DNA of 64,000 nucleotides. It comes from Escherichia phage A7_1. Under the pieces are notes generated by a model. It saw nothing but the letters and a program-made list of their open reading frames with translations. It ran no database searches and was not told the DNA's origin. Location of the stretch: the sequence record OP795442; one strand, given 5' to 3'. The first letter of the stretch is position 1. Each line of letters begins with the position of its first letter. The position numbers were made by a program, and so were the translations under genes. Shown here in pieces: positions 2,218 through 62,570 of this stretch.

Positions 2218-3393
2218 TCAAAACGGAATATCGTCGTCAAAATCCATATCATCTACAGACATATTTACATGTCCTTCAATATCAGGGGTAGGTGAATCTT
2301 CTGCTGACGGAGTTAACTGCGGTTCCGGCTCAGGTTTCTTTTCCTCTTGCTTAGGAGTTGAAGCACCGTTACGGATCTTATCTTCCAATTGACAGATGAA
2401 TCGGAAATTCTCTTCAGTCTTAGCAATAAAGGTTTCGATATTGTCACGACCCCAACGGGCAGAAAGAATGCCACACTGGCCTAAACGAGCACCGAAAGAG
2501 TAATCATCCATAGATTTAAACTCTTCACGCAGTTTTGCTTTGATCGAATCCATCGCTGCAAGAACTTGTTCTACGATCACACCCTGATTTGCAATAGTTT
2601 CATCAGGGAACATTGCATCGGTAATAGACAGTGCATTACCTAAACGAATAGGTAGATCATCTTTACCTTTACCTGAACGTGATCCTGTTCCAGTACTTGC
2701 ACCTTTTGGACCGTAAGCTTTAAAGCCTGTAACCGTACCATCATCTGAACGAACACCTGCAATACGACCACCTTCTGTAATCTGACCCGCCTGTTCATCA
2801 GTGAGGTTTACAGTAACTTCTGTGCCGTCTTCCAGCTTAACAACTACCTTATTGCCTTCAATAGATGTGATATCACCATAAATCTTCTTAGCTGCACCAC
2901 CAGACGGCTTTTGCTGCTGTTGGGAACCACTTGATTGCTGCTGTTTCTGACGAGGCTCACGAGCACCGGATGCGTCAGTAATTTTGATACGTGCTTTCTT
3001 ACCTTCTGTAGAAGAACCTTGACTACCATCTTCTTTGGTATAGGTCTTGATAACAACAGGTAAACGAATTTTCATACCCTCTTTAAGATCAGTGTAACCA
3101 CCTTCAGGATTTTTAATCTGGAACTGATTCTCATACTTCAGGTTTTTAACTTCACCCTCACCAAAAGAAATCCATGCTTGATCTTCACCTTCTTTAAGAA
3201 GAACCGCATAGCGGTGGGTATTGTTAATGCTTTTCTGCTGACCAGTATTCTTGTCTTTGAAGGTAGTCACTCGTGGGCTACCATCTTCATTAATACGTTT
3301 GATCATGATACGTTCAATCGTACCTGCTGCAATGTTTACTGTGGTATCGGAAACAGCATCGTATACAGCATTGATAACTTTAACTTCAGACAT
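2218..3393 (-). CDS. SSB-like DNA-binding protein with acidic C-terminal tail
   Basis: 391 aa ending DMDFDDDIPF, the acidic tail typical of SSB proteins; Gln/Gly/Ser-rich linker; the N-terminal domain is not obviously an OB fold to me. Confidence 0.6.
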   Translation of the reverse strand: MSEVKVINAVYDAVSDTTVNIAAGTIERIMIKRINEDGSPRVTTFKDKNTGQQKSINNTHRYAVLLKEGEDQAWISFGEGEVKNLKYENQFQIKNPEGGYTDLKEGMKIRLPVVIKTYTKEDGSQGSSTEGKKARIKITDASGAREPRQKQQQSSGSQQQQKPSGGAAKKIYGDITSIEGNKVVVKLEDGTEVTVNLTDEQAGQITEGGRIAGVRSDDGTVTGFKAYGPKGASTGTGSRSGKGKDDLPIRLGNALSITDAMFPDETIANQGVIVEQVLAAMDSIKAKLREEFKSMDDYSFGARLGQCGILSARWGRDNIETFIAKTEENFRFICQLEDKIRNGASTPKQEEKKPEPEPQLTPSAEDSPTPDIEGHVNMSVDDMDFDDDIPF

Positions 3394-3476: not shown

Positions 3477-3857
3477 TTAGAGATAAACTCGCTTAACTTT
3501 TTCATGAACATTATCAAACAAAGTGTTGATCATCTGCAAGTCTTTAATAAGTTCTTCCGTAAATTGTTCTTCTTTGTGAGCAAACACACGAGAACGGTCA
3601 ATGTTTACGGGATCTGCACTTTGGTCACCAGACAGGTCGAAAATGTCGATACCAATACGAGCACGACCTTTTTCAATCTTATTCTCATCATCAATACCAT
3701 AAACACTCATGATTTGCATTTCACGATCTTCTTCACTGTTTGTGTAAATGATCGTCGTATTCAAATTCTTAACACCATCGTAAATGTGAATGTTACGTGT
3801 CGCAGAGATAGGAATCCAATCAGCAACCAAATAATCTTTACCGTCGAAAATACTCAT
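3477..3857 (-). CDS. hypothetical protein
   Basis: Track ORF, 126 aa, fits leftward gene packing. Confidence 0.5.
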   Translation of the reverse strand: MSIFDGKDYLVADWIPISATRNIHIYDGVKNLNTTIIYTNSEEDREMQIMSVYGIDDENKIEKGRARIGIDIFDLSGDQSADPVNIDRSRVFAHKEEQFTEELIKDLQMINTLFDNVHEKVKRVYL

Positions 3858-3911
3858 CTTCTTTCCTCTTTTGTTTAAGTGGGGCCATTATGCCCCACAC
3901 TTAACTTTCTG

Positions 3912-4499
3912 TCAAGGACGTTTCGGTGGACTAACGACACCTTTTTTAGATAAAGGTAATTCGTCTGCATCTTTTCCACGAAGAGATTCTAGCCACTCAT
4001 CTAAAGACAGGGGTACTTTACCATCACCTTTGGACCATACAGATAAGCAATACAGATCGTATGCAGATGGACCTCGATCACCTTTGTCACCATTCAACCC
4101 TTTTAAACTATCCAGCCAATCCTTCTCATTTAGTGGGATAGCGCCAGGATCTTCTTTACGAAGAACTCTCAGGTATGTTTCATAAGCAGACTCTCCACGG
4201 GGACCAATTGGACCAGGTAAACCTTGCGGTCCCTTTGCATACTCAAGACACTTAGAATCTAAATATGCAGACTTTGAACCATCATTAACCACTGAAACTT
4301 TATACAATGACCAAGCCAACAGAACTATCCAACAAGCAAACAATGCAAGCGGGTAAGGGATCATTGAAGTAAAGAATGACAGGGCTAAAATTACAACCTT
4401 GTTCTTGTGATCACGACGGAAAGCGATGATCACAGGGGCTAACCAGATAGCAAAGATAACCCACGCAGATAAGATAAACAACCAACTAATGTATTCCAT
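3912..4499 (-). CDS. membrane protein, superinfection-immunity-like N-terminus plus two short collagen-like G-X-Y segments
   Basis: Two N-terminal TM helices around an FRRDHKNK motif; GPQGLPGPIGPRGES and GLNGDKGDRGPS each followed by SAY(E/D). Confidence 0.6.
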   Translation of the reverse strand: MEYISWLFILSAWVIFAIWLAPVIIAFRRDHKNKVVILALSFFTSMIPYPLALFACWIVLLAWSLYKVSVVNDGSKSAYLDSKCLEYAKGPQGLPGPIGPRGESAYETYLRVLRKEDPGAIPLNEKDWLDSLKGLNGDKGDRGPSAYDLYCLSVWSKGDGKVPLSLDEWLESLRGKDADELPLSKKGVVSPPKRP

Positions 4500-4687
4500 T
4501 AAGCCTCCTCAGTATCGTCTTTAAAGTAATCTAACATCCAACTCTCTACAGGTTTCGCATAGTAACCTGTTCGCCCTTTCTTTTGGAACTCCATAACAAT
4601 TTCATTTGCAATACTTTTTGTGATTGCGATCCCGATTAGTGCTCCACCAGGACCCATTACTGCGTGTGAACTAAAAACATTACTCAT
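4499..4687 (-). CDS. hypothetical small protein
   Basis: Track ORF, 62 aa, start overlaps the upstream stop. Confidence 0.45.
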   Translation of the reverse strand: MSNVFSSHAVMGPGGALIGIAITKSIANEIVMEFQKKGRTGYYAKPVESWMLDYFKDDTEEA

Positions 4688-4750
4688 ATTTAACCCCCTT
4701 TATTCTCTCCGCAACCGACAAGAAGAAGTATACATAAAATGATTAACCTC

Positions 4751-4908
4751 TTCAATAGCTACCTCCAAAATATTTTGTAGCCTCTACTGCAAATATTGTC
4801 CCAAGTATGAACCATGTCGCACTTAGCACGTTGAAAGGTAAAAACCTCGATCCTGCAAGAGAAACCATAATAAAAAATGTTACAAAAATCTCTGGAGAAA
4901 TCATCATT
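4751..4908 (-). CDS. small hydrophobic protein (about 52 aa, not in track)
   Basis: Hand-translated MMISPEIFVTFFIMVSLAGSRF...; ATG overlaps the stop of 4904..5305 (ATGA); approximate coordinates. Confidence 0.4.
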
Positions 4909-5305
4909 GTTTGATAGCCCCTTTGGCAATCATCTCGTCAAGTTCATCTTCCGCACGACACATGATTTGGTAGATAGTTTCTGGATTGTTTAAGAATTCT
5001 GTGTACTTCTTGATACGACAAACTAAACGTGCACGAACTTTACGCTCACGGGCCACATGATTAAAGTAATGTCCCTTTTGTCTGTAGACCCAAGCATAAT
5101 ATACAGTTTTTGCTCTCTGGCGATCAGAACCTAAACGTTCAGCTAATTCCGTGTACGGGTCATTGTTGGTTGGACCAAACAAAAATATTTCTGCAAAACT
5201 TTCCTTCATGATACGAGCTTCTTCATCCGTAACTCGCGGACATTCTTCAGAACCGTAACGTGGGGTTTTAGTGGCATTTGGCTTCTTAGGGTATACTTTA
5301 CGCAT
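4904..5305 (-). CDS. hypothetical protein
   Basis: Track ORF, 133 aa. Confidence 0.5.
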   Translation of the reverse strand: MRKVYPKKPNATKTPRYGSEECPRVTDEEARIMKESFAEIFLFGPTNNDPYTELAERLGSDRQRAKTVYYAWVYRQKGHYFNHVARERKVRARLVCRIKKYTEFLNNPETIYQIMCRAEDELDEMIAKGAIKQ

Positions 5306-7863: not shown

Positions 7864-8130
7864 TTAGATATAGTCTACACCAGCTTGTTCCAACAAGTCA
7901 AGTCTCAATTTAAGTTCTTTTTCACGATAATCGGAAACAAGTTTATCCTTTTTCTTTTCTTCTTCCTCAAACTGTTCGAGAGGAAGAATACGAATAATGT
8001 GTTCTGCCTTCATGTAGGACGTTGAACCAATAAGCTGAACATTACCATTTGGTAACAATCGGCCCTTGATCACCCGATAACGAGGGAACAAGTCATATTT
8101 AACAATCGCGGTAACTGCTAGATTACTCAT
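7864..8130 (-). CDS. hypothetical protein
   Basis: Track ORF, 88 aa. Confidence 0.45.
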   Translation of the reverse strand: MSNLAVTAIVKYDLFPRYRVIKGRLLPNGNVQLIGSTSYMKAEHIIRILPLEQFEEEEKKKDKLVSDYREKELKLRLDLLEQAGVDYI

Positions 8131-8449
8131 GTGTATTCTCCATATCGCGAATTCGATCTTCTACCCAACCACGACGATAAATGTTGAGGTAAGATTTACC
8201 TTTTGAACCATGATGGGCATATTCGTCAAAATCAAAATCGAAAGGTGTCTCGGTGTTAAGACCTGCATCAAAGAATTGATTCTTCATTTCGAATTGCACT
8301 TTCATATCTGGATCATTTTTACCTAAAAATGAGGACAAATTAAAACAAAGGCCAGCACCTCGGTAAAAAGCCCCATCTTTTGGTGCACCGATATCTAACC
8401 ATTTTTTATATTCTCGGTAGAAATTCAGAAGTTGCGGACTGCTTTTCAT
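8123..8449 (-). CDS. hypothetical protein (paralogue of 18204..18500)
   Basis: Track ORF 8123..8500 begins at a TTG inside a palindrome; likely start is the ATG about 51 nt downstream (MKSSPQLL) behind a GAGGAG SD; shares WLD-GAP / GLC / F-DAGLN / PFD motifs with 18204..18500. Confidence 0.5.
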   Translation of the reverse strand: MKSSPQLLNFYREYKKWLDIGAPKDGAFYRGAGLCFNLSSFLGKNDPDMKVQFEMKNQFFDAGLNTETPFDFDFDEYAHHGSKGKSYLNIYRRGWVEDRIRDMENTHE

Positions 8450-8470
8450 TTTGTTCTCCTCATTTGTTTT

Positions 8471-8498
8471 GATAGGACTACTATAACATAGTCCTATC
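8471..8498. promoter_or_regulatory. perfect 9-bp inverted repeat (GATAGGACT / AGTCCTATC) in the leader of gene 8123..8449
   Basis: Read directly; 10-nt spacer; no flanking T-run so not a terminator; possible operator or RNA structure. Confidence 0.4.
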
Positions 8499-8582
8499 AA
8501 CTTGTATACTATTTAATTAAAGATTTTATGAATACTTGGTAGGACCCTTCTTTAAATACTCATCTGGATAATAAAAATCATC

Positions 8583-8960
8583 CTATACTCCAAATGTGGA
8601 TTTGATTTCAGCAATAACCTCATGCACATTGTTTTCGTTTACTTCAAATGTGTAGGACGTTGGTTTAAGGAACGTCTGAGGTGAAACATTAACAAAGAAT
8701 TCAAATTCATCATCAAAAATTTCAAAGTATTTTCCCGGTGTTGATTCTTGACTTTTGAAAACAGTACCATCTTCCATAGTAACAGAAGAAACAGATTTTT
8801 CACCAAGGGTGTATGTTTTTAACTCATCAACAACGAAACTAGGACCGTGACGACGTAGTATTTCAACCATAGTTCGGTTGGCCCCGCAAATACCTGTCCG
8901 CTTAATAAATAACTCTTCACACCGAGGATTGAGAATATAAGTTTTTCCTACTTGCATCAT
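8583..8960 (-). CDS. hypothetical protein, tandem paralogue 1 of 3
   Basis: 125 aa; N-terminus M-x-(V/I)-GKTY-x-LN shared with the next two genes. Confidence 0.55.
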   Translation of the reverse strand: MMQVGKTYILNPRCEELFIKRTGICGANRTMVEILRRHGPSFVVDELKTYTLGEKSVSSVTMEDGTVFKSQESTPGKYFEIFDDEFEFFVNVSPQTFLKPTSYTFEVNENNVHEVIAEIKSTFGV

Positions 8961-8970
8961 AACAACCCCC

Positions 8971-9330
8971 TTAGGATAAGTTAAATGTGGATTTGATCAG
9001 GTCGATAGTTTCTTGTGCGTTTTGCTCAGATACTGACACCTGGATAATTTTAAGATCACTGACCTCTTCGAAGTATTTGAACTCAGATTCACGAAGTTCA
9101 AAGTACATTGCCCCACAGCCCACACTGAATGAATCACACCCTACAGCACCATCTTCTGTTGTGATGTTATTAACATACTCATCACCTTCGATCATACTCA
9201 TGTTATTAACAATAAATCGCGGCCCGTGCTCATCCAGAAAAGAAACAATCTCGTGATTGTAACTTGGGTCAGCCTTAATAAATTCTTCCACGAATTTTGG
9301 ATTAAGTTTATAAGTTTTACCTACTTCCAT
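8971..9330 (-). CDS. hypothetical protein, tandem paralogue 2 of 3
   Basis: 119 aa; aligns with 9342..9716 (GKTY, HGP-F-VNN, EDG, YFEL-ESEF, NAQET-DLIK-TFNL). Confidence 0.55.
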   Translation of the reverse strand: MEVGKTYKLNPKFVEEFIKADPSYNHEIVSFLDEHGPRFIVNNMSMIEGDEYVNNITTEDGAVGCDSFSVGCGAMYFELRESEFKYFEEVSDLKIIQVSVSEQNAQETIDLIKSTFNLS

Positions 9331-9341
9331 CTTTGTTCTCC

Positions 9342-9716
9342 TTACGCCAGGTTAAAGGTAGCTTTAATCAAATCTAAAGTTTCTTGTGCATTACTACGAG
9401 AGACGGCAACCTGAATAATAACAGGGTCTTCATCTTCCCCGACTTCTTTGAAGAAGGGAAATTCACTCTCTGCAAGTTCAAAGTATACACACTTGTTACC
9501 TTCGCAGTCGTGAAAAACGTCACTACCTAAAGTACCATCTTCAAATATGACATTGTTAACATATGCAACATTATCATAGAAGTGGGTGGTGTTGACAACA
9601 AATTTAGGACCGTGCTTATAAATAAGGTCAACCAATTCTTGATTGTAGCTAGGGTCCATATTGATAAAAGCTTTTTCTAAGTCTTTATTAAGAATGTAAG
9701 TTTTTCCGATTTCCAT
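9342..9716 (-). CDS. hypothetical protein, tandem paralogue 3 of 3
   Basis: 124 aa; same motif set. Confidence 0.55.
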   Translation of the reverse strand: MEIGKTYILNKDLEKAFINMDPSYNQELVDLIYKHGPKFVVNTTHFYDNVAYVNNVIFEDGTLGSDVFHDCEGNKCVYFELAESEFPFFKEVGEDEDPVIIQVAVSRSNAQETLDLIKATFNLA

Positions 9717-17956: not shown

Positions 17957-18207
17957 AAACCATACCTCGCTTCATATAAGAATTCATCAAGATCTTTACT
18001 GTCGTCGGAACCTTCTACTGTCAACGGCATCAGGTGTTCTTTGAAATAATAGCAAAGATTGCCGGAACTCGTTTCCACTAAACATGTGGTTTTGCAAACC
18101 ATCTTAACTTTCACCGATAGTCCCGCATCTTCATGGCTGTGGACCATTGCAAGACAACCATCATAAAGCTTATCCTCGTAAGGTAAGCAAGGATCTGGAT
18201 TTTTCAT
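17953..18207 (-). CDS. hypothetical protein
   Basis: Track ORF, 84 aa. Confidence 0.45.
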   Translation of the reverse strand: MKNPDPCLPYEDKLYDGCLAMVHSHEDAGLSVKVKMVCKTTCLVETSSGNLCYYFKEHLMPLTVEGSDDSKDLDEFLYEARYGL

Positions 18208-18500
18208 CGTGAACTTTCCTCCTCCGCATGTTTACGCACCCATTCTACACGGGACGCGTTCAGGTGTTTGTTATCGTCGTAGTGATACGCTTTCCAACCT
18301 TCGTCGAAAGGGAACTCCCAGTTCAGTCCGGCATCGGTAAACTGTTGCTGCATCTCTTTGAGTAACTTATAGTCACACTCTGAAAACTCTTCCAGTGCGT
18401 TACACAGACCGCAGGTCCGATCAAACGTCTCGGAGTGTGGTGCACCAGCGTCAAGCCACTCAGCATAGGCTTTATAGAATGCTTTAAGTTGCTCGCTCAT
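18204..18500 (-). CDS. hypothetical protein (paralogue of 8123..8449)
   Basis: 98 aa; shared motifs with 8123..8449. Confidence 0.5.
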   Translation of the reverse strand: MSEQLKAFYKAYAEWLDAGAPHSETFDRTCGLCNALEEFSECDYKLLKEMQQQFTDAGLNWEFPFDEGWKAYHYDDNKHLNASRVEWVRKHAEEESSR

Positions 18501-44175: not shown

Positions 44176-44287
44176 AGCCAGTACGCTGATAATGCATTAC
44201 GATCCGACAACAAAGAAAGGTAGTCTATCAATCCAGGTTGGAGAGGTGGAAGAGTTTTCCGGTGAAATAGTCTGTAATTAATATCTT

Positions 44288-44319
44288 GAGGCCCGTCATT
44301 GTACGGGCCTTTTTCTTTT
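44288..44319 (+). terminator. rho-independent terminator
   Basis: aggcccgtcattgtacgggcct followed by T-run. Confidence 0.8.
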
Positions 44320-44343
44320 ATGAAAATAATTTTGAAAATGTTG

Positions 44344-44411
44344 TTGACAGTAAAATCGATTCTGTTAAGATGTATCACATCAGGACGGGGAACGAAGTAA
44401 ACACTCCCCGT
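44344..44411 (+). promoter_or_regulatory. promoter plus hairpin cassette with no downstream ORF
   Basis: TTGACA-16/17-TAAGAT then acgggga...tccccgt hairpin; next start codon is after a second cassette. Confidence 0.5.
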
Positions 44412-44470
44412 TAAGTAGTCCAGGAGTAAGACATACGAAAAACTCCCCTGATAAAAAGATTTAAAAGTGG

Positions 44471-44527
44471 TTGACACAAAATTAAAAACTGTTAAGATGT
44501 ATCACATACGGCGGCAATAGTGCCGCC
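44471..44527 (+). promoter_or_regulatory. promoter plus 5' GC hairpin cassette
   Basis: TTGACA-16-TAAGAT then ggcggca-atag-tgccgcc. Confidence 0.6.
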
Positions 44528-44547
44528 TCCAACAAAGAGAAATTATC

Positions 44548-44799
44548 ATGGCTAACAAAACTAAAACCACTAAAACTTATAACGGTCACAAAAACAAAAA
44601 TCATTGGAACGTTTCTCTATGGCTTAACAATGATTCATCACTTTACCAGCTGGCGAAAGAATTTATTAACGCTAACACTAATCGTAATGATGCGGCGCGG
44701 GATATGATGATTTTTCTGGAACAAACTGGACAATATAAAACTCCAGACGGTTTCAAGTACAGCACTACGGCGATCCGTGCTGCAATGGTTGGAATGTAA
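44548..44799 (+). CDS. hypothetical protein (paralogue of 46366..46605)
   Basis: 83 aa; shares HWNVSLW and C-terminal TPDGFKYSTTAIRAAMVGM. Confidence 0.55.
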   Translation: MANKTKTTKTYNGHKNKNHWNVSLWLNNDSSLYQLAKEFINANTNRNDAARDMMIFLEQTGQYKTPDGFKYSTTAIRAAMVGM

Positions 44800-44817
44800 T
44801 ATTCAATACTGTAACAA

Positions 44818-44836
44818 TGGCGGGATTAGTTCCCGC
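44818..44836 (+). promoter_or_regulatory. 5' leader GC hairpin
   Basis: ggcggga-ttagt-tcccgcc. Confidence 0.5.
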
Positions 44837-44855
44837 CTTTGCGGAGAAATATCTA

Positions 44856-45143
44856 ATGAGCAAAGTAATTGACTGTAAAGTGTTAACCAAATCATTGTCA
44901 ATCAGTGAGTGCACCAATGGTTATTGGCTTTATGATGAAACACGCGGCATGAATCTAGCTATGGAAGCTAAAACGGCTGAGGCGGCGTATGTGCAAGCCC
45001 TGGAATACTACCAGAGACGTTTAAAGGAAGTAGAAAACAATTATCAGAATCTCAAAGAGAAAGTAGATCATTTCGTTGGTCAATTCGTTGACGATGACGA
45101 GGAAGACGGGCACTACTGCAACCGCTGCGGATCTTACAGTTAA
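44856..45143 (+). CDS. hypothetical protein
   Basis: Track ORF 44817 begins inside the hairpin; ATG at about 44856 behind GGAG is likelier (MSKVIDCKVL). Confidence 0.5.
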   Translation: MSKVIDCKVLTKSLSISECTNGYWLYDETRGMNLAMEAKTAEAAYVQALEYYQRRLKEVENNYQNLKEKVDHFVGQFVDDDEEDGHYCNRCGSYS

Positions 45144-45147
45144 GTAC

Positions 45148-45207
45148 TTGCAATTAGTTTTAAGTACTGTATAATGTTTTACATCGAGAGCGGGAATAGT
45201 TCCCGCC
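45148..45207 (+). promoter_or_regulatory. promoter plus 5' GC hairpin cassette
   Basis: TTGCAA-16-TATAAT then gcgggaa-tag-ttcccgc. Confidence 0.6.
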
Positions 45208-45229
45208 TCACATCAAAGAGATTAAAATT

Positions 45230-45457
45230 ATGGCTATCCTTATTGTTCGTGTATCCGGTACAGTTGGTAACTCCCAGGTTGTAGCAGTTGTAACAAGCAA
45301 AAAGATTAATGAATCTTCTAAAATCTTGAACGAATGGGCCGTTGCTAACTTTGGTCAATGGTCGAGCGTCGAGTATCTCGAATCTTACCAGGTGCCAACT
45401 ATTAGCCTAACCGATCTCAATGTTGATCGCCTGTTATGCCTGGATGAATTGATTTAA
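45230..45457 (+). CDS. hypothetical protein
   Basis: Track ORF, 75 aa. Confidence 0.5.
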   Translation: MAILIVRVSGTVGNSQVVAVVTSKKINESSKILNEWAVANFGQWSSVEYLESYQVPTISLTDLNVDRLLCLDELI

Positions 45458-45464
45458 AAAGTAG

Positions 45465-45524
45465 TTGCAAAGTAAAACGAATAAAGTATAATACATTACA
45501 TCAGGGGGAGAAATGATTCTCCCC
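45465..45524 (+). promoter_or_regulatory. promoter plus 5' GC hairpin cassette
   Basis: TTGCAA-16-TATAAT then gggggaga-aatga-ttctcccc. Confidence 0.6.
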
Positions 45525-45541
45525 ACTAAAAGGAAACTAAA

Positions 45542-45685
45542 ATGAAAACTTGTCAGTGTGGTAAAAAGTCTATTGCTGGTCTGCGTCGCGGTGTTGCTTT
45601 ATGCCAGTATCATTACAATAGTCAAGTATGGGGTAAAACGTGGGCTGACCAGGTTGAAGCAGCAAAGAAAGCAAAAAGTAATTGA
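45542..45685 (+). CDS. small Cys-rich protein (about 47 aa, not in track)
   Basis: MKTCQCGKKSIAGLRRGVALCQYHYNSQVW... behind AAGGA SD; the antisense track ORF 45570..45887 is rejected; approximate. Confidence 0.4.
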   Translation: MKTCQCGKKSIAGLRRGVALCQYHYNSQVWGKTWADQVEAAKKAKSN

Positions 45686-45738
45686 CAGCAAGAAGAAAAA
45701 GAGTAAACTGTATTACGTAGGGCGGCAATAGCGCCGCC
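45682..45738 (+). promoter_or_regulatory. promoter plus 5' GC hairpin cassette
   Basis: TTGACA then ggcggc-aatagc-gccgcc. Confidence 0.55.
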
Positions 45739-45762
45739 ACATCAAAGATAGAGAGAATCAAA

Positions 45763-45981
45763 ATGGCCAATATCCGCACTGTACTGAAAAATGCAAAACA
45801 AGTTTTATTTTCTGACGATGAATATTTTAATCGCAATATCAAAGGCGTTCGGAACATTGAGGATGTAAAGGAATTATTTGGAATCAAAGGTAACGTATAT
45901 CGTAAAGGATTGCACGGTAATAATTTTGAATATAAGTTGGCTGATAGTGATTATAATTTTACACTGACCACCATTAGTTGA
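45763..45981 (+). CDS. hypothetical protein
   Basis: Track ORF, 72 aa. Confidence 0.5.
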   Translation: MANIRTVLKNAKQVLFSDDEYFNRNIKGVRNIEDVKELFGIKGNVYRKGLHGNNFEYKLADSDYNFTLTTIS

Positions 45982-46000
45982 AAGTTTTAACCTAGCGCTA

Positions 46001-46029
46001 TTGACTTAAGCCGATAGTGCTGGCATAAT
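46001..46029 (+). promoter_or_regulatory. sigma70-like promoter (copy 1 of a duplicated promoter)
   Basis: TTGACT-17-CATAAT; about 40-bp leader nearly identical to the promoter at 46294. Confidence 0.6.
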
Positions 46030-46061
46030 AACTTTTATCAAGAACATCAAAGGAAAGTAAA

Positions 46062-46274
46062 ATGGCTATCATTACTAAAATCAAAGTAAACAAAACACTG
46101 GTTAAGCTGGAAGAAGTGAAAGCAGGTTATAAAGTATCTTGGTGTGGCATGTATCGGATGTTCACAGATATAGACGATGCAATCAATTACTACACTAACA
46201 CGATTAAAAACTTTGTTCGTGCTGATGTGATTATTGCAGTGGAAGCACATAAAGCATCGAAAGAAAGTAAGTAA
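46062..46274 (+). CDS. hypothetical protein
   Basis: Track ORF, 70 aa. Confidence 0.5.
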   Translation: MAIITKIKVNKTLVKLEEVKAGYKVSWCGMYRMFTDIDDAINYYTNTIKNFVRADVIIAVEAHKASKESK

Positions 46275-46293
46275 AATTATTACCACAGTACTA

Positions 46294-46322
46294 TTGACAA
46301 CTACTGATAGTACTGACATAAT
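46294..46322 (+). promoter_or_regulatory. sigma70-like promoter (copy 2 of a duplicated promoter)
   Basis: TTGACA-17-CATAAT followed by the same ataacttttatcaag leader. Confidence 0.6.
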
Positions 46323-46365
46323 AACTTTTATCAAGTAGTACAAATCAAAAAGAGAGAATATCATC

Positions 46366-46605
46366 ATGGCTAAATCTAAAACTTTCAACGATCACAAAAA
46401 CAAAACTCATTGGAATGTTTCCTTGTGGATTAATAATGGTGAAGCACTGTATCGGCTTGCTCAAAATTGCATTGCACAAAGTAAAACTAAAGATATTGCT
46501 GCGGAATGTATGTACCGCAGATTAAAAGCGAACGGCACTACAACAACGCCGGACGGATTTAAGTATAGCACCACTGCGATCCGTGCCGCGATGGTTGGAA
46601 TGTAA
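46366..46605 (+). CDS. hypothetical protein (paralogue of 44548..44799)
   Basis: 79 aa; HWNVSLW and C-terminal TPDGFKYSTTAIRAAMVGM shared. Confidence 0.55.
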   Translation: MAKSKTFNDHKNKTHWNVSLWINNGEALYRLAQNCIAQSKTKDIAAECMYRRLKANGTTTTPDGFKYSTTAIRAAMVGM

Positions 46606-46624
46606 AAAGAAAAAGTAAAAGTAG

Positions 46625-46682
46625 TTGACACAAAGAAACAAAACAAGTAAATTAATCACATCAGGCGGGGAATGGCCCCGCT
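46625..46682 (+). promoter_or_regulatory. promoter plus 5' GC hairpin cassette
   Basis: TTGACA-17-TAAATT then gcgggg-aatgg-ccccgc; nearly identical to the cassette at 48749. Confidence 0.65.
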
Positions 46683-46703
46683 AAAAGAGAAGAGAGAAAT
46701 CAA

Positions 46704-47036
46704 ATGAGCTTTTTATCTATCGTGCAGACTAACTTTGAAAATGATTTTATTGCTCAAGCTATCAACATTGACAAAGGTATCCCAAATATCAATTTTGGTT
46801 TTAATAGTGGTGGTTATGAGAGATACCAGTATTTTGTAACTGACGATGGAAGTGTTTTAGGTATCAATACGGTGATGGCTAATATCCAAAACATTAATTT
46901 CAATGATCCCGATGAGCGCTCATTCTATATCGTCGGTATCCAGGTGAACTACAATGATGACTCTTTAATCGATGATTACACTGGCGAGACGTTAGAGAGT
47001 GCTTACGGTGATGAATCAGAAGAAGAAGAAGAATAA
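46704..47036 (+). CDS. strongly acidic small protein
   Basis: 110 aa; many Asp/Glu, almost no Lys/Arg; ends DESEEEEE. Confidence 0.55.
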   Translation: MSFLSIVQTNFENDFIAQAINIDKGIPNINFGFNSGGYERYQYFVTDDGSVLGINTVMANIQNINFNDPDERSFYIVGIQVNYNDDSLIDDYTGETLESAYGDESEEEEE

Positions 47037-48084: not shown

Positions 48085-48112
48085 AAGGCCCGCTATAATG
48101 TGGGCCTTTCTT
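48085..48112 (+). terminator. rho-independent terminator
   Basis: aggcccgctataatgtgggcct then ttcttt. Confidence 0.7.
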
Positions 48113-48733: not shown

Positions 48734-48748
48734 TTTAAAAAAAAGTAG

Positions 48749-48805
48749 TTGACTCGAAGAAACAAAACAAGTAAATTATTCACATCAGGCGGGGAATGGC
48801 CCCGC
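48749..48805 (+). promoter_or_regulatory. promoter plus 5' GC hairpin cassette
   Basis: TTGACT-17-TAAATT then ggcgggg-aatg-gccccgc; duplicate of the cassette at 46625. Confidence 0.65.
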
Positions 48806-48821
48806 TGAACAAAAAGAGATT

Positions 48822-49289: not shown

Positions 49290-49541
49290 ATGATCGAACA
49301 AATCAAAACTACGACGGCTAATGTAACGGGTACAATATCGCACTTTATTAGTGATGAATCGCGGGGCGTTCCTTATTGTGCAGTACATGTAAACAAAAAT
49401 GGCGACTACTGGTTAACGGCGTATGGATCTTATTCTTTCGGACGTAGTGCACACCAAAAGATCCTGGATAAAGTACAACCAACGGGTAAAAATATTACCG
49501 CTGAGATGTTTAATAAATCACTTGCAAAGTTAAAAGCGTAA
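49290..49541 (+). CDS. hypothetical protein
   Basis: Track ORF, 83 aa. Confidence 0.5.
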   Translation: MIEQIKTTTANVTGTISHFISDESRGVPYCAVHVNKNGDYWLTAYGSYSFGRSAHQKILDKVQPTGKNITAEMFNKSLAKLKA

Positions 49542-49581
49542 AGTATAATACATCACATCAGGCGGGGAGTGTTTCCCCGCC
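49523..49581 (+). promoter_or_regulatory. promoter plus 5' GC hairpin cassette
   Basis: TTGCAA-15-TATAAT then ggcgggga-gtgtt-tccccgcc. Confidence 0.55.
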
Positions 49582-49602
49582 ACAAAATGAAAGGCCAACA
49601 AA

Positions 49603-61363: not shown

Positions 61364-62561
61364 TTATTCCGGCAATTCCAAGGGTGTAAACTCGAAGAGT
61401 TGCATACCTATGTAACCTGGGAGCAATCCTGCACTGCTATTACCGACACCATATAGGATTCCTTTATCTACATAGTAGTGTGCAACATAGCCACCTTTTA
61501 GTGATGAATATTCTCCACCATATGGTACAGTCGCTGCAAGCTGTGTAAATACTGAATATGAAGACTGGAATTGTGCGCCTGCGCCTTGTAAACTACCCGT
61601 AGCTGCTCCTGTATAGTATACCCTTTTTTCTTCCGGGTGGAGAATACGGGCGCTAAAGTGACCAATGTACAAAGGAGGTAATGAAGGTACATTGGAAAAT
61701 ACCAACGTTGGCGCAACAACGTTTATATTACCCGAGTTGTTTACCCCGAGACTTCCTGACACACTTTGTCCTTGTGCGTAAACGGAGTAACTACCATTTG
61801 AAAGCACAATCCTAAAAAATCCAAACGTTGTCGCAATTATGTCAACTACCGTACCACCGCTAATTTGGCTTTGCCTAAGCCAAGTTGTATTGCTTGAAGT
61901 TGTTCCATTTTGTCCATTATTTGAAAGACCTGCGACATAAACTTCACCACTTTTGGTCAGAAGATAGGATGTATCGTATGTTGACCAGTCAAGATCTATT
62001 TTTTCAACATTCGTGAAGTCAGTCCTTAAGGTTAAGGTTTTTACCGTAGAGGTATCTCCTTTCCCCAAACCCCCTGAGTTGTTAGTACCAGGTTTTTACC
62101 GTAGAGGTATCTCCTTTCCCCAAACCCCCTGAGTTGTTAGTACCACACATTGCATACTGCCCATTGGTAAAGACAACAGCCAGATTACGATGCCCGATCG
62201 CCACCTGCTTAACTATAAGTCCTCTAGGTATAGGCATATCGGCAGTTACATCCGTGGGTGTCCTTATCGTAGTCCCATAACCCGTATTGAAATATTGATT
62301 AAACCCCATAAACAGCCACCTACCTGCGGTTGTCCTCATGAGAACAGCACTAGATGCAGTCCATATCTCTTCCACTTCTCTTGCCAGATAGCGCCATGTT
62401 GTAGCATTTCCCCCTGTACCGCTGAAGTATTGATCTCCTATACCATAGACGTTACCGGAGTTCATAAGCACAACAATGCCACCATTGCCAGCGGCAAACT
62501 TCTTAACGTTACCTTCCACCACTGGCAATTCGGCAGAGCCTAAGTTCATCATTTCTAACAT
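61364..62561 (-). pseudogene. tail-fibre paralogue disrupted by a 55-bp tandem duplication
   Basis: Track ORFs 62082..62561 and 61364..62068 both encode GLGKGDTSTVKT at the junction; removing one 55-bp copy joins them in frame. Confidence 0.7.
62036..62145. repeat. perfect 55-bp tandem duplication
   Basis: ggtttttaccgtagaggtatctcctttccccaaaccccctgagttgttagtacca occurs twice back to back. Confidence 0.9.
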
Positions 62562-62570
62562 AATTTTTCC

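Follow-up and report, generated by a model that had tools for sequence, protein, structure and literature searches.

Cassette exchange between phages as the probable origin of a DUF7249 gene pair and a repeated promoter in the small-gene array of Escherichia phage A7_1

The presence of two related small genes and of two similar promoters within a short interval of the presumed early region of Escherichia phage A7_1 raises the question of whether this region has recently duplicated part of itself. The locus was studied in a window of 64,000 nucleotides (sequence record OP795442; the window is the whole stretch of DNA that was analyzed), whose region 44200-46900 is 99.9% identical in nucleotide sequence to Escherichia phage A5-4 (OP744025). 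A5-4 was used as the name of the window phage in the analysis, and what is said of A5-4 refers to the window locus; the phage belongs to the Vequintavirinae, genus Septuagintavirus, the name following PMC11370258. The two genes encode proteins of the DUF7249 family (copy A, 44548..44799, and copy B, 46366..46605), and the two promoters (P1 and P2) are predicted at about 46001 and 46294. Both resemblances had been taken by the first-pass annotation as direct evidence of recent cassette duplication and shuffling. The comparisons reported here indicate that the shuffling of cassettes between phages, and not a recent duplication, explains the gene pair and the promoter repeat alike, a reading to which a probability of about 0.7 is given.

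The relationship between the two genes is sound, the open reading frames (ORFs) and BLASTP being in agreement. The proteins were found to be identical in 45 of 76 residues (59%) in an ungapped alignment with an E value of 4e-32, and they have in common the motif HWNVSLW and an identical 19-residue C-terminus, TPDGFKYSTTAIRAAMVGM. Both matched Pfam DUF7249 (PF23907) above its curated cut-off of 27, with 51.5 bits for copy A and 43.8 bits for copy B, as well as phrog_871, with E values of 1e-29 and 2.5e-26, respectively. Only these two copies were detected in the 64-kb window by tblastn, and an all-against-all comparison of ORFs identified the pair as the sole duplicated genes of the plus-strand array.

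The claim that the pair arose by a recent cassette duplication did not survive closer comparison. The nucleotide identity of the two genes amounts to about 70% over 237 nt (gapped blastn) or 64% (ungapped codon alignment), and by segment to 79% in the first 30 codons, 39% in the central 30, which define two allele types, A and B, and 84% in the last 19. This homology does not extend past the genes, whose promoters and leaders are unrelated, copy A being preceded by a promoter element of class A and copy B by one of class B (described below). The rates of nonsynonymous (dN) and synonymous (dS) divergence were 0.34 and 1.75, respectively, the synonymous sites being saturated (NG86). Within the identical C-terminus, 9 of the 19 codons differ synonymously (dN 0, dS 1.7). 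Across 76-122 family members, as distant as about 52% identity, the motifs common to both copies showed little or no variation: among 76 sequences, the columns K15, W20, N21, V22, S23, L24, W25, N28, Y33, A49, T65, P66, D67, I76, R77, A78, A79 and M80 were invariant and G68, S72 and V81 nearly so (90% or more of the sequences), and the resulting family pattern, HWNVSLW...N and TPD(G)..Y(S)...IRAAM(V), is present in both copies. The combination of an identical C-terminus with nine synonymous changes and family-wide invariance points to purifying selection, and not to recency or gene conversion. In a neighbour-joining tree of 122 family members, copies A and B were placed in different clades; bootstrap support (200 replicates, 40-sequence subset of the family) was 78% for type A and 86% for type B, and A and B were sisters in none of the 200 replicates. 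The pair thus differs from a recent segmental duplicate in its high dS, in flanks without identity and in copies that are not mutual closest relatives, and its interpretation as such a duplicate is not supported. The comparison with close relatives (W70, A73, UPEC06 and LTH01, with flanks about 91-96% identical to the window) also counts against a recent duplication, as all four carry only one DUF7249 copy.

Copy A lies in an insertion relative to W70 and A73, together with a second gene that matches phrog_19040. Synteny with the relatives breaks at 44456 and resumes at 45155, W70 and A73 are contiguous there (3256 to 3268), and UPEC06 and LTH01 have an unrelated 273-nt gene at the same site. 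As read from the junction sequences, the insertion begins and ends at -35 hexamers, each belonging to a different promoter. The inserted genes (module A) are nearly identical to a module on L009 and L010, two metagenomic phage contigs of 138.5 kb. Copy A is identical to its counterpart on L009 in 250 of 252 nt and the phrog_19040 gene is 96.5% identical, whereas the promoter-leaders flanking the module are only 64-71% identical; the rest of L009 is 66-80% identical to the window, except for a promoter-plus-structured element at 44323-44467 (86%). The similarity of the module to L009 begins exactly at the -35 box of the promoter at 44471 and ends at 45236. In addition, copy A displayed 91% amino acid identity to a protein of Phapecoctavirus Ro121. 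Because copy A is absent from W70 and A73, is replaced by another gene in UPEC06 and LTH01 and is nearly identical to a gene of the otherwise distant L009, it is considered to be imported, and these comparisons mark it as a recently exchanged two-gene cassette and not as a copy of a resident gene.

The order DUF7249 followed by phrog_19040 recurs as a two-gene module in W70, in phAPEC6 (with a type-B copy) and on L009, besides the module of copy A in the window; copy B is without a phrog_19040 partner. The stem-loop that separates the two genes of the window module (44819-44837) is a 95% repeat of 45190-45208. The second gene is annotated in GenBank as A54_70 with a start at 44817, at this stem-loop. 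The ATG at 44856 is preceded by a GGAG Shine-Dalgarno site, and the resulting 95-residue product covers phrog_19040 from end to end; for these two reasons, 44856 is probably the real start. The orthologous leader hairpins at 45186-45209 of the window (GCGGGAATAGTTCCCGC) and at about 3300-3320 of the W70 locus (GGGGAGAATAGTTCTCCCC) differ by compensating changes, which suggests selection on structure rather than on sequence.

Promoters P1 and P2 had been described as sharing a nearly identical segment of 40 bp. The repeat itself is real, as the blocks 46013-46042 and 46306-46335 are identical in 28 of 30 positions and the window contains just two occurrences of the degenerate 30-mer, against none in 100 shuffles. 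The stated length was slightly too generous, since the truly common block is 30 bp long; it comprises the 3' half of the spacer, the -10 box CATAAT and 13 nt beyond, after which the leaders diverge. From the -35 box, P1 and P2 are identical in 34 of 42 positions, as counted by eye, and they are 72% identical over 76 nt. The two promoters, of which P2 is the predicted promoter of copy B, flank a 293-bp one-gene cassette containing 46062..46274. The arrangement P1-gene-P2 was found in the window and in W70; in A73, UPEC06 and LTH01 the gene is absent and there is a single promoter, composed of the upstream half of P1 and the downstream half of P2, joined in CATAATAACTTTTATCAAG with no bases extra or missing. 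The same promoter-gene-promoter unit is present at 83-88% nucleotide identity in some Asteriusvirus phages. In Asteriusvirus Ecwhy_1 the cassette lies between direct repeats of about 77 bp with one base different (as read by eye), and other Asteriusvirus phages, such as phAPEC6, have a single promoter and no cassette gene. The Asteriusvirus element is resembled by the upstream half of P2, a stretch that takes in the end of the cassette gene (3'), and the upstream half of P1 and the downstream half of P2 are resident sequence. A simple local duplication of the promoter seems unlikely, and the pattern is the one that would be expected from a single crossover of a circular cassette with the resident promoter.

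Copy B is a mosaic, with resident-like ends and a central segment of the Asteriusvirus/Phapecoctavirus type. The single DUF7249 gene of W70, A73, UPEC06 and LTH01 sits at the position of copy B and is of type A, its product being 82-85% identical to copy A and 65% identical to copy B. Compared with the A73 allele at the same site, copy B is about 88-91% identical at its ends (the first 90 nt and the last 60 nt, with places above 90%) and about 43% identical in the central 90 nt. The nucleotide identity of this central segment is about 40% with type-A alleles, against 89-93% with the type-B alleles found in other phage genera, namely those of Asteriusvirus phAPEC6 and Phapecoctavirus 3A1_SA_NWU, and the whole protein is 91-92% identical to the Asteriusvirus alleles and to that of 3A1_SA_NWU. 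The ends of copy B are likewise closer to alleles of other genomes (88-93%) than to copy A (79-84%). A corresponding switch was observed between two Phapecoctavirus genomes, 3A1_SA_NWU (type B) and Ro121c4YLVW (type A), which share 96% identity over 6.2 kb, falling to 68% in the DUF7249 gene and to 48% in its central part; the identity changes abruptly, in the leader on one side and in the conserved 3' end on the other, and types A and B replace each other at one locus in this genus. In Asteriusvirus phages both types are present, as single copies about 2 kb from each other. Since the types interchange at one locus and recur across lineages, the pair is best regarded as two long-diverged allelic types of one early gene family; the two types are spread over at least three phage lineages and were probably joined in the window phage by exchange.

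Altogether, three insertion, deletion or replacement events were recognized within 2.5 kb, all with breakpoints in promoter/stem-loop elements. The shuffling claimed for the array therefore stands, while the recent duplication claimed along with it does not. Cassette shuffling is strongly supported and readable at base resolution, and the anatomy of the cassettes, their breakpoints and their relationships are directly visible in the genomes compared. The surrounding plus strand, from about 43.4 to 57 kb, is a run of consecutive small ORFs, most with their own predicted near-consensus sigma70-type promoter; predicted promoter matches on this strand are concentrated at 43-57 kb, and those at 44471, 45148, 45465, 45682, 46001, 46294 and 46625 match 10-11 of 12 consensus positions. 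Eight elements were found to fold at -11.5 to -16.4 kcal/mol, with z scores of -2.8 to -6.0. In class B, a stem-loop of 11-12 bp encloses the -35 box, and its arms vary by compensating changes (AGCGCTAT/ATAGTGCT, CAGTACTAT/ATAGTACTG and, in UPEC06, CAGCACTAT/ATAGTGCTG). In class A, a G+C-rich hairpin (z -2.8 to -6.0) lies a few bases 3' of the -10 box, with stems that vary between elements (GGCGGC, GCGGGA, GGGGAGA and GCGGGG). Sites resembling intrinsic terminators were found on the plus strand between 44 and 49 kb only at 44288-44311 and 48085-48108.

The window would accordingly represent an early, small-gene array driven by the host RNA polymerase, in which nearly all genes are provided with a composite element of their own, made up of a near-consensus sigma70 promoter and a stable stem-loop. 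The repeated elements may serve as portable homology, and recombination inside them would insert, delete and replace cassettes of one or two genes, both within a genome and between co-infecting phages. Both DUF7249 types would circulate among Septuagintavirus, Phapecoctavirus and Asteriusvirus, with conserved ends and swapped central 30 codons, the exchange with alleles of other phages proceeding through the conserved gene ends. The type-A module (copy A and the phrog_19040 gene) would have been imported into a cassette hot-spot at 44457-45154, and the resident locus carries a type-B central segment, leaving the window phage with both types. The supposedly duplicated promoter would be the pair of direct repeats left by the cassette 46062..46274, an Asteriusvirus-like cassette whose presumed route of entry is one crossover with the resident class-B promoter, inside the shared 19-30 bp. 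From these patterns we infer the recombination mechanism (with any circular intermediate), the early timing and the role of the stem-loops.

Several points weigh against this account. A deletion between P1 and P2 would yield the same chimera as that seen in A73, and the direction of the event, insertion or deletion, is judged from few genomes; insertion of the 46062 cassette is favored only because the upstream half of P2 is Asteriusvirus-like. The finding that 18 of 24 intergenic gaps between 39 and 52 kb contain both a promoter and a hairpin (gaps of at least 45 nt, promoters with at least 9 of 12 matches, hairpins of -9 kcal/mol or lower) is a rough count without a shuffled control. The class-A hairpins have no T-run and are thus not canonical intrinsic terminators. 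As for function, a profile search of PDB sequences gave no match to anything characterized, Foldseek of an AlphaFold2 model against the PDB gave nothing with an E value below 5, a structure search of BFVD returned only uncharacterized homologues, and the DUF7249 proteins had no match in NCBIfam or PADLOC.

The competing explanations have to be judged against the same evidence. A recent in-situ duplication of a promoter-gene cassette within the array, which was the reading of the first-pass annotation, would account for two family members lying 1.8 kb apart on the same strand with one C-terminus, and for two promoters 293 bp apart with a common block; it is nevertheless scarcely credible, given the synonymous divergence of the pair as a whole and of its identical C-terminal codons, the end of homology at the gene borders, the unlike promoter classes, the absence of copy A from the relatives and the fact that each copy is far closer to genes of other phages and was never recovered as the sister of the other. 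Gene conversion between the copies, which would keep the termini identical, finds some encouragement in the contrast between conserved ends and a middle of about 40% identity, as such ends could support homologous exchange. It is, however, very improbable in view of the synonymous differences in the identical C-terminus, of the invariance or near-invariance of the same residues in distant homologues and of the greater closeness of the ends of copy B to alleles of other genomes than to copy A.

An ancient duplication in a common ancestor, with vertical inheritance and repeated loss of one copy in the relatives, would agree with the presence of a type-A and a type-B copy about 2 kb apart in Asteriusvirus as well, and the types could ultimately be old paralogues. 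Against such a history, the four nearest relatives all have one type-A gene at the copy-B site and an empty site, or an unrelated gene, at that of copy A; copy A is 99% identical in nucleotide sequence to the gene of a phage that is otherwise mostly 66-80% identical; and types A and B swap at one Phapecoctavirus locus. This incongruence between gene and genome refutes an ancient vertical duplication for the window phage, and the explanation is held to be unlikely overall. A similarly low likelihood is attached to the idea that the promoters merely converged on the sigma70 consensus and that genes were gained and lost by illegitimate recombination in the manner of morons. The promoters of the array all resemble TTGACA-N17-TATAAT by necessity and the cassettes are as self-contained as morons; yet the shared block reaches 13 nt past the -10 box and 11 nt into the spacer and was not reproduced in the shuffles, three relatives have a clean P1/P2 chimera, the edges of module A lie at -35 boxes and, in an unrelated phage genus, the P1/P2 cassette is bordered by the same element. 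The shared protein termini and similar promoters are thus attributed here to purifying selection and cassette exchange, correcting a tempting misreading as duplication.

The shuffling proposed for the window resembles that of the promoter-early stem-loop (PeSL) cassettes, mobile cassettes of T4-like phages (Arbiol et al. 2010, PMC2839356; Comeau et al. 2014, PMC4122927). PeSLs consist of sigma70-like promoters and stem-loops in several relative positions and crowd the hyperplastic regions where orphan genes lie; cassettes are inserted, deleted and replaced through them, a single chimeric element is left where a cassette is missing, and mini-circles as well as promoter and terminator activity were shown experimentally for RB49/phi1 (PMC2839356, PMC4122927). 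The window array agrees with them in its promoters, its stem-loops, their density and the breakpoints that leave chimeras: stable stem-loops lie upstream of, over or downstream of the boxes of near-consensus sigma70 promoters, these elements are repeated many times between small genes of no assigned role, the breakpoints of gains, losses and replacements between close relatives lie inside them, and a one-gene cassette between two elements corresponds to a single chimeric element in a relative. However, the array does not belong to the described RB49/phi1, PST or nt-1 element sets. The lineage is Vequintavirinae, with partners in Asteriusvirus and Stephanstirmvirinae, and not T4-like; the stems (GGCGGC.., GCGGGA.., CAGTACTAT..) are unrelated to the RB49/phi1 elements and to those described; most stem-loops lie in the transcribed leader and have no T-run; and the activity and mini-circles of RB49/phi1 are experimental, whereas the window promoters and stem-loops are predictions. 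Because phage lineage and sequences differ, the array is regarded as working like PeSLs yet standing outside the described sets. No link between rV5-like phages and PeSLs was found in the literature searched; the rV5 genome paper lists 33 sigma70 promoters with no PeSL-like idea, and the Septuagintavirus paper (PMC11370258) does not discuss promoters. The morons of lambdoid phages (Juhala/Hendrix model) are similarly self-contained, being gene units that carry transcription signals of their own and are placed between genes already present, and are thought to move by illegitimate recombination without conserved flanks (PMC2839356); in contrast, the flanks of the window cassettes are repeated elements and the junctions are clean chimeras.

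PeSL-like shuffling is an already known process, previously for T4-like phages, and what is new is the lineage and the reach between genera, the window offering a base-resolved case of promoter/stem-loop-mediated shuffling in rV5-like phages with exchange that extends to the jumbo Asteriusvirus and to Phapecoctavirus. For a phage early region such shuffling is nothing unusual, and its modest interest lies in its being a clean PeSL-like case from beyond the T4-like phages, with a bearing on how the early host-takeover gene sets of therapeutic coliphages diversify.

DUF7249 is itself common among phages as an early protein, with a central segment that comes in two discrete types; a profile search of 1.84 billion representatives gave 2,287 clusters at 50% identity. 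The window proteins match Pfam DUF7249 and PHROG 871 over nearly their full length and, like other members, are encoded among small genes of presumed early regions. A single copy is usual in the listed phages of about 140-150 kb, whereas the window phage, alone in this size range among those listed, has two; the other phages with two copies are the Asteriusvirus jumbo phages. Phages that encode the family include Autographiviridae and Kyanoviridae, the gene lies about 2 kb from the left end in a Koutsourovirus genome, and its neighbors in Ralstonia, Vibrio, Salmonella and Synechococcus phages are small hypothetical genes only. No second Pfam domain was found on the few long family proteins, and a literature search for DUF7249 returned no paper. 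The AlphaFold2 model, a confident one (pLDDT 86, pTM 0.75), predicts a small helical protein with three helices (residues 17-28, 30-42 and 46-59), followed by a short extended stretch and a short helix at the C-terminus (73-79). In this model the type-defining central segment corresponds approximately to helices 2 and 3, and the invariant motifs to helix 1 and the C-terminal part. DUF7249 may have an early accessory role in host takeover or counter-defence, and its variable middle helices could set target specificity. A bolder extension, offered tentatively and judged rather doubtful, is that PeSL-type cassettes are no speciality of T4-like phages and form an early-gene pool shared by unrelated coliphages (140-kb Septuagintavirus, 150-kb Phapecoctavirus and 350-kb Asteriusvirus), in which DUF7249 is maintained as a two-type polymorphism with a central helix pair setting target specificity. 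If this were true, a phage with both types, like that of the window, would cover both host or defence variants.

Table 1. Features of the DUF7249 locus, in window coordinates unless another genome is named (MFE, minimum free energy; promoters are predictions).
Feature	Position	Strand	Description
Insertion relative to W70 and A73	44457..45154	+	698 bp: promoter, leader hairpin, copy A, phrog_19040 gene
Module A promoter	44471..44498	+	sigma70-type, TTGACA-16-TAAGAT
Leader stem-loop GGCGGCAATAGTGCCGCC	44510..44527	+	G+C-rich, just 3' of -10 box; MFE -14.0 kcal/mol, z -3.9
DUF7249 copy A	44548..44799	+	83 aa, type-A central segment; annotated coding sequence A54_69 in OP744025
Stem-loop GGCGGGATTAGTTCCCGCC	44819..44837	+	between copy A and next gene; degenerate promoter; MFE -16.2 kcal/mol, z -4.9
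phrog_19040 gene	44856..45143	+	95 aa, second gene of module A; E 5.8e-56, profile 1-94/94
DUF7249 + phrog_19040 module	window 44548-45143; W70 locus 4477-5058; phAPEC6 locus 4514-5093; L009 4001-4596		
Right-hand bounding element of module A	45148..45209	+	promoter TTGCAA-16-TATAAT plus leader stem-loop
Homologue of window 45763..45981	UPEC06 locus 4259-4477; 3A1_SA_NWU locus 3650-3862		70-72 aa; phrog_12266
Class-B element P1	45992..46029	+	12-bp stem-loop around -35 box; TTGACT-17-CATAAT; MFE -16.4 kcal/mol, z -4.3
Shared 30-bp block, copy 1	46013..46042	+	includes 19-bp CATAATAACTTTTATCAAG, putative crossover interval
One-gene cassette	46062..46274	+	70 aa, 213 nt, phrog_35559
Class-B element P2	46286..46322	+	11-bp stem-loop around -35 box; TTGACA-17-CATAAT; MFE -11.5 kcal/mol, z -5.0
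Shared 30-bp block, copy 2	46306..46335	+	repeat of 46013..46042
DUF7249 copy B	46366..46605	+	79 aa, type-B central segment; annotated coding sequence A54_75 in OP744025
Central 30 codons of copy B	46456..46545	+	segment defining allele type

Further repeats of promoter-plus-leader elements were noted in the array. The elements at 46617-46695 and 48741-48819 are 91% identical over 79 nt and those at 45453-45536 and 49509-49592 are 79% identical over 86 nt, the flagged pair P1/P2 being less alike than these; they are likely to be further substrates for recombination. Upstream of module A, at 44344-44456, a strong predicted promoter (TTGACA-16-TAAGAT) is followed by about 80 nt without an ORF and then by the next promoter. 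The predicted transcript adopts a closed two-hairpin fold (-21.6 kcal/mol, z -3.1), and the element is identical, by eye, in the otherwise distant L009, 88.6% identical in the jumbo phage phAPEC6 and kept in W70 and A73. It has no Rfam or tRNA match, and among five sequences a single base pair displayed compensating changes, which is too thin a covariation to decide; the element could be an early small RNA or an orphaned leader. A tRNA search of the window found none, and an Rfam search of 42-58 kb returned no credible family.

Every gene of the region 44200-46900 is annotated as 'hypothetical protein' in OP744025. Homologues of the gene at 45763..45981 are labelled 'phosphoribosylpyrophosphate synthetase' in UPEC06 and 3A1_SA_NWU, a label that is almost certainly wrong, the product being a small early protein (phrog_12266). 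Elsewhere in the window, paralogue sets were observed on the minus strand (8583-9716; 8123-8500 and 18204-18500; 62082-63818), consisting of three tandem ORFs of about 120 aa at 35-52% identity and of two more pairs at 44% and 28%.

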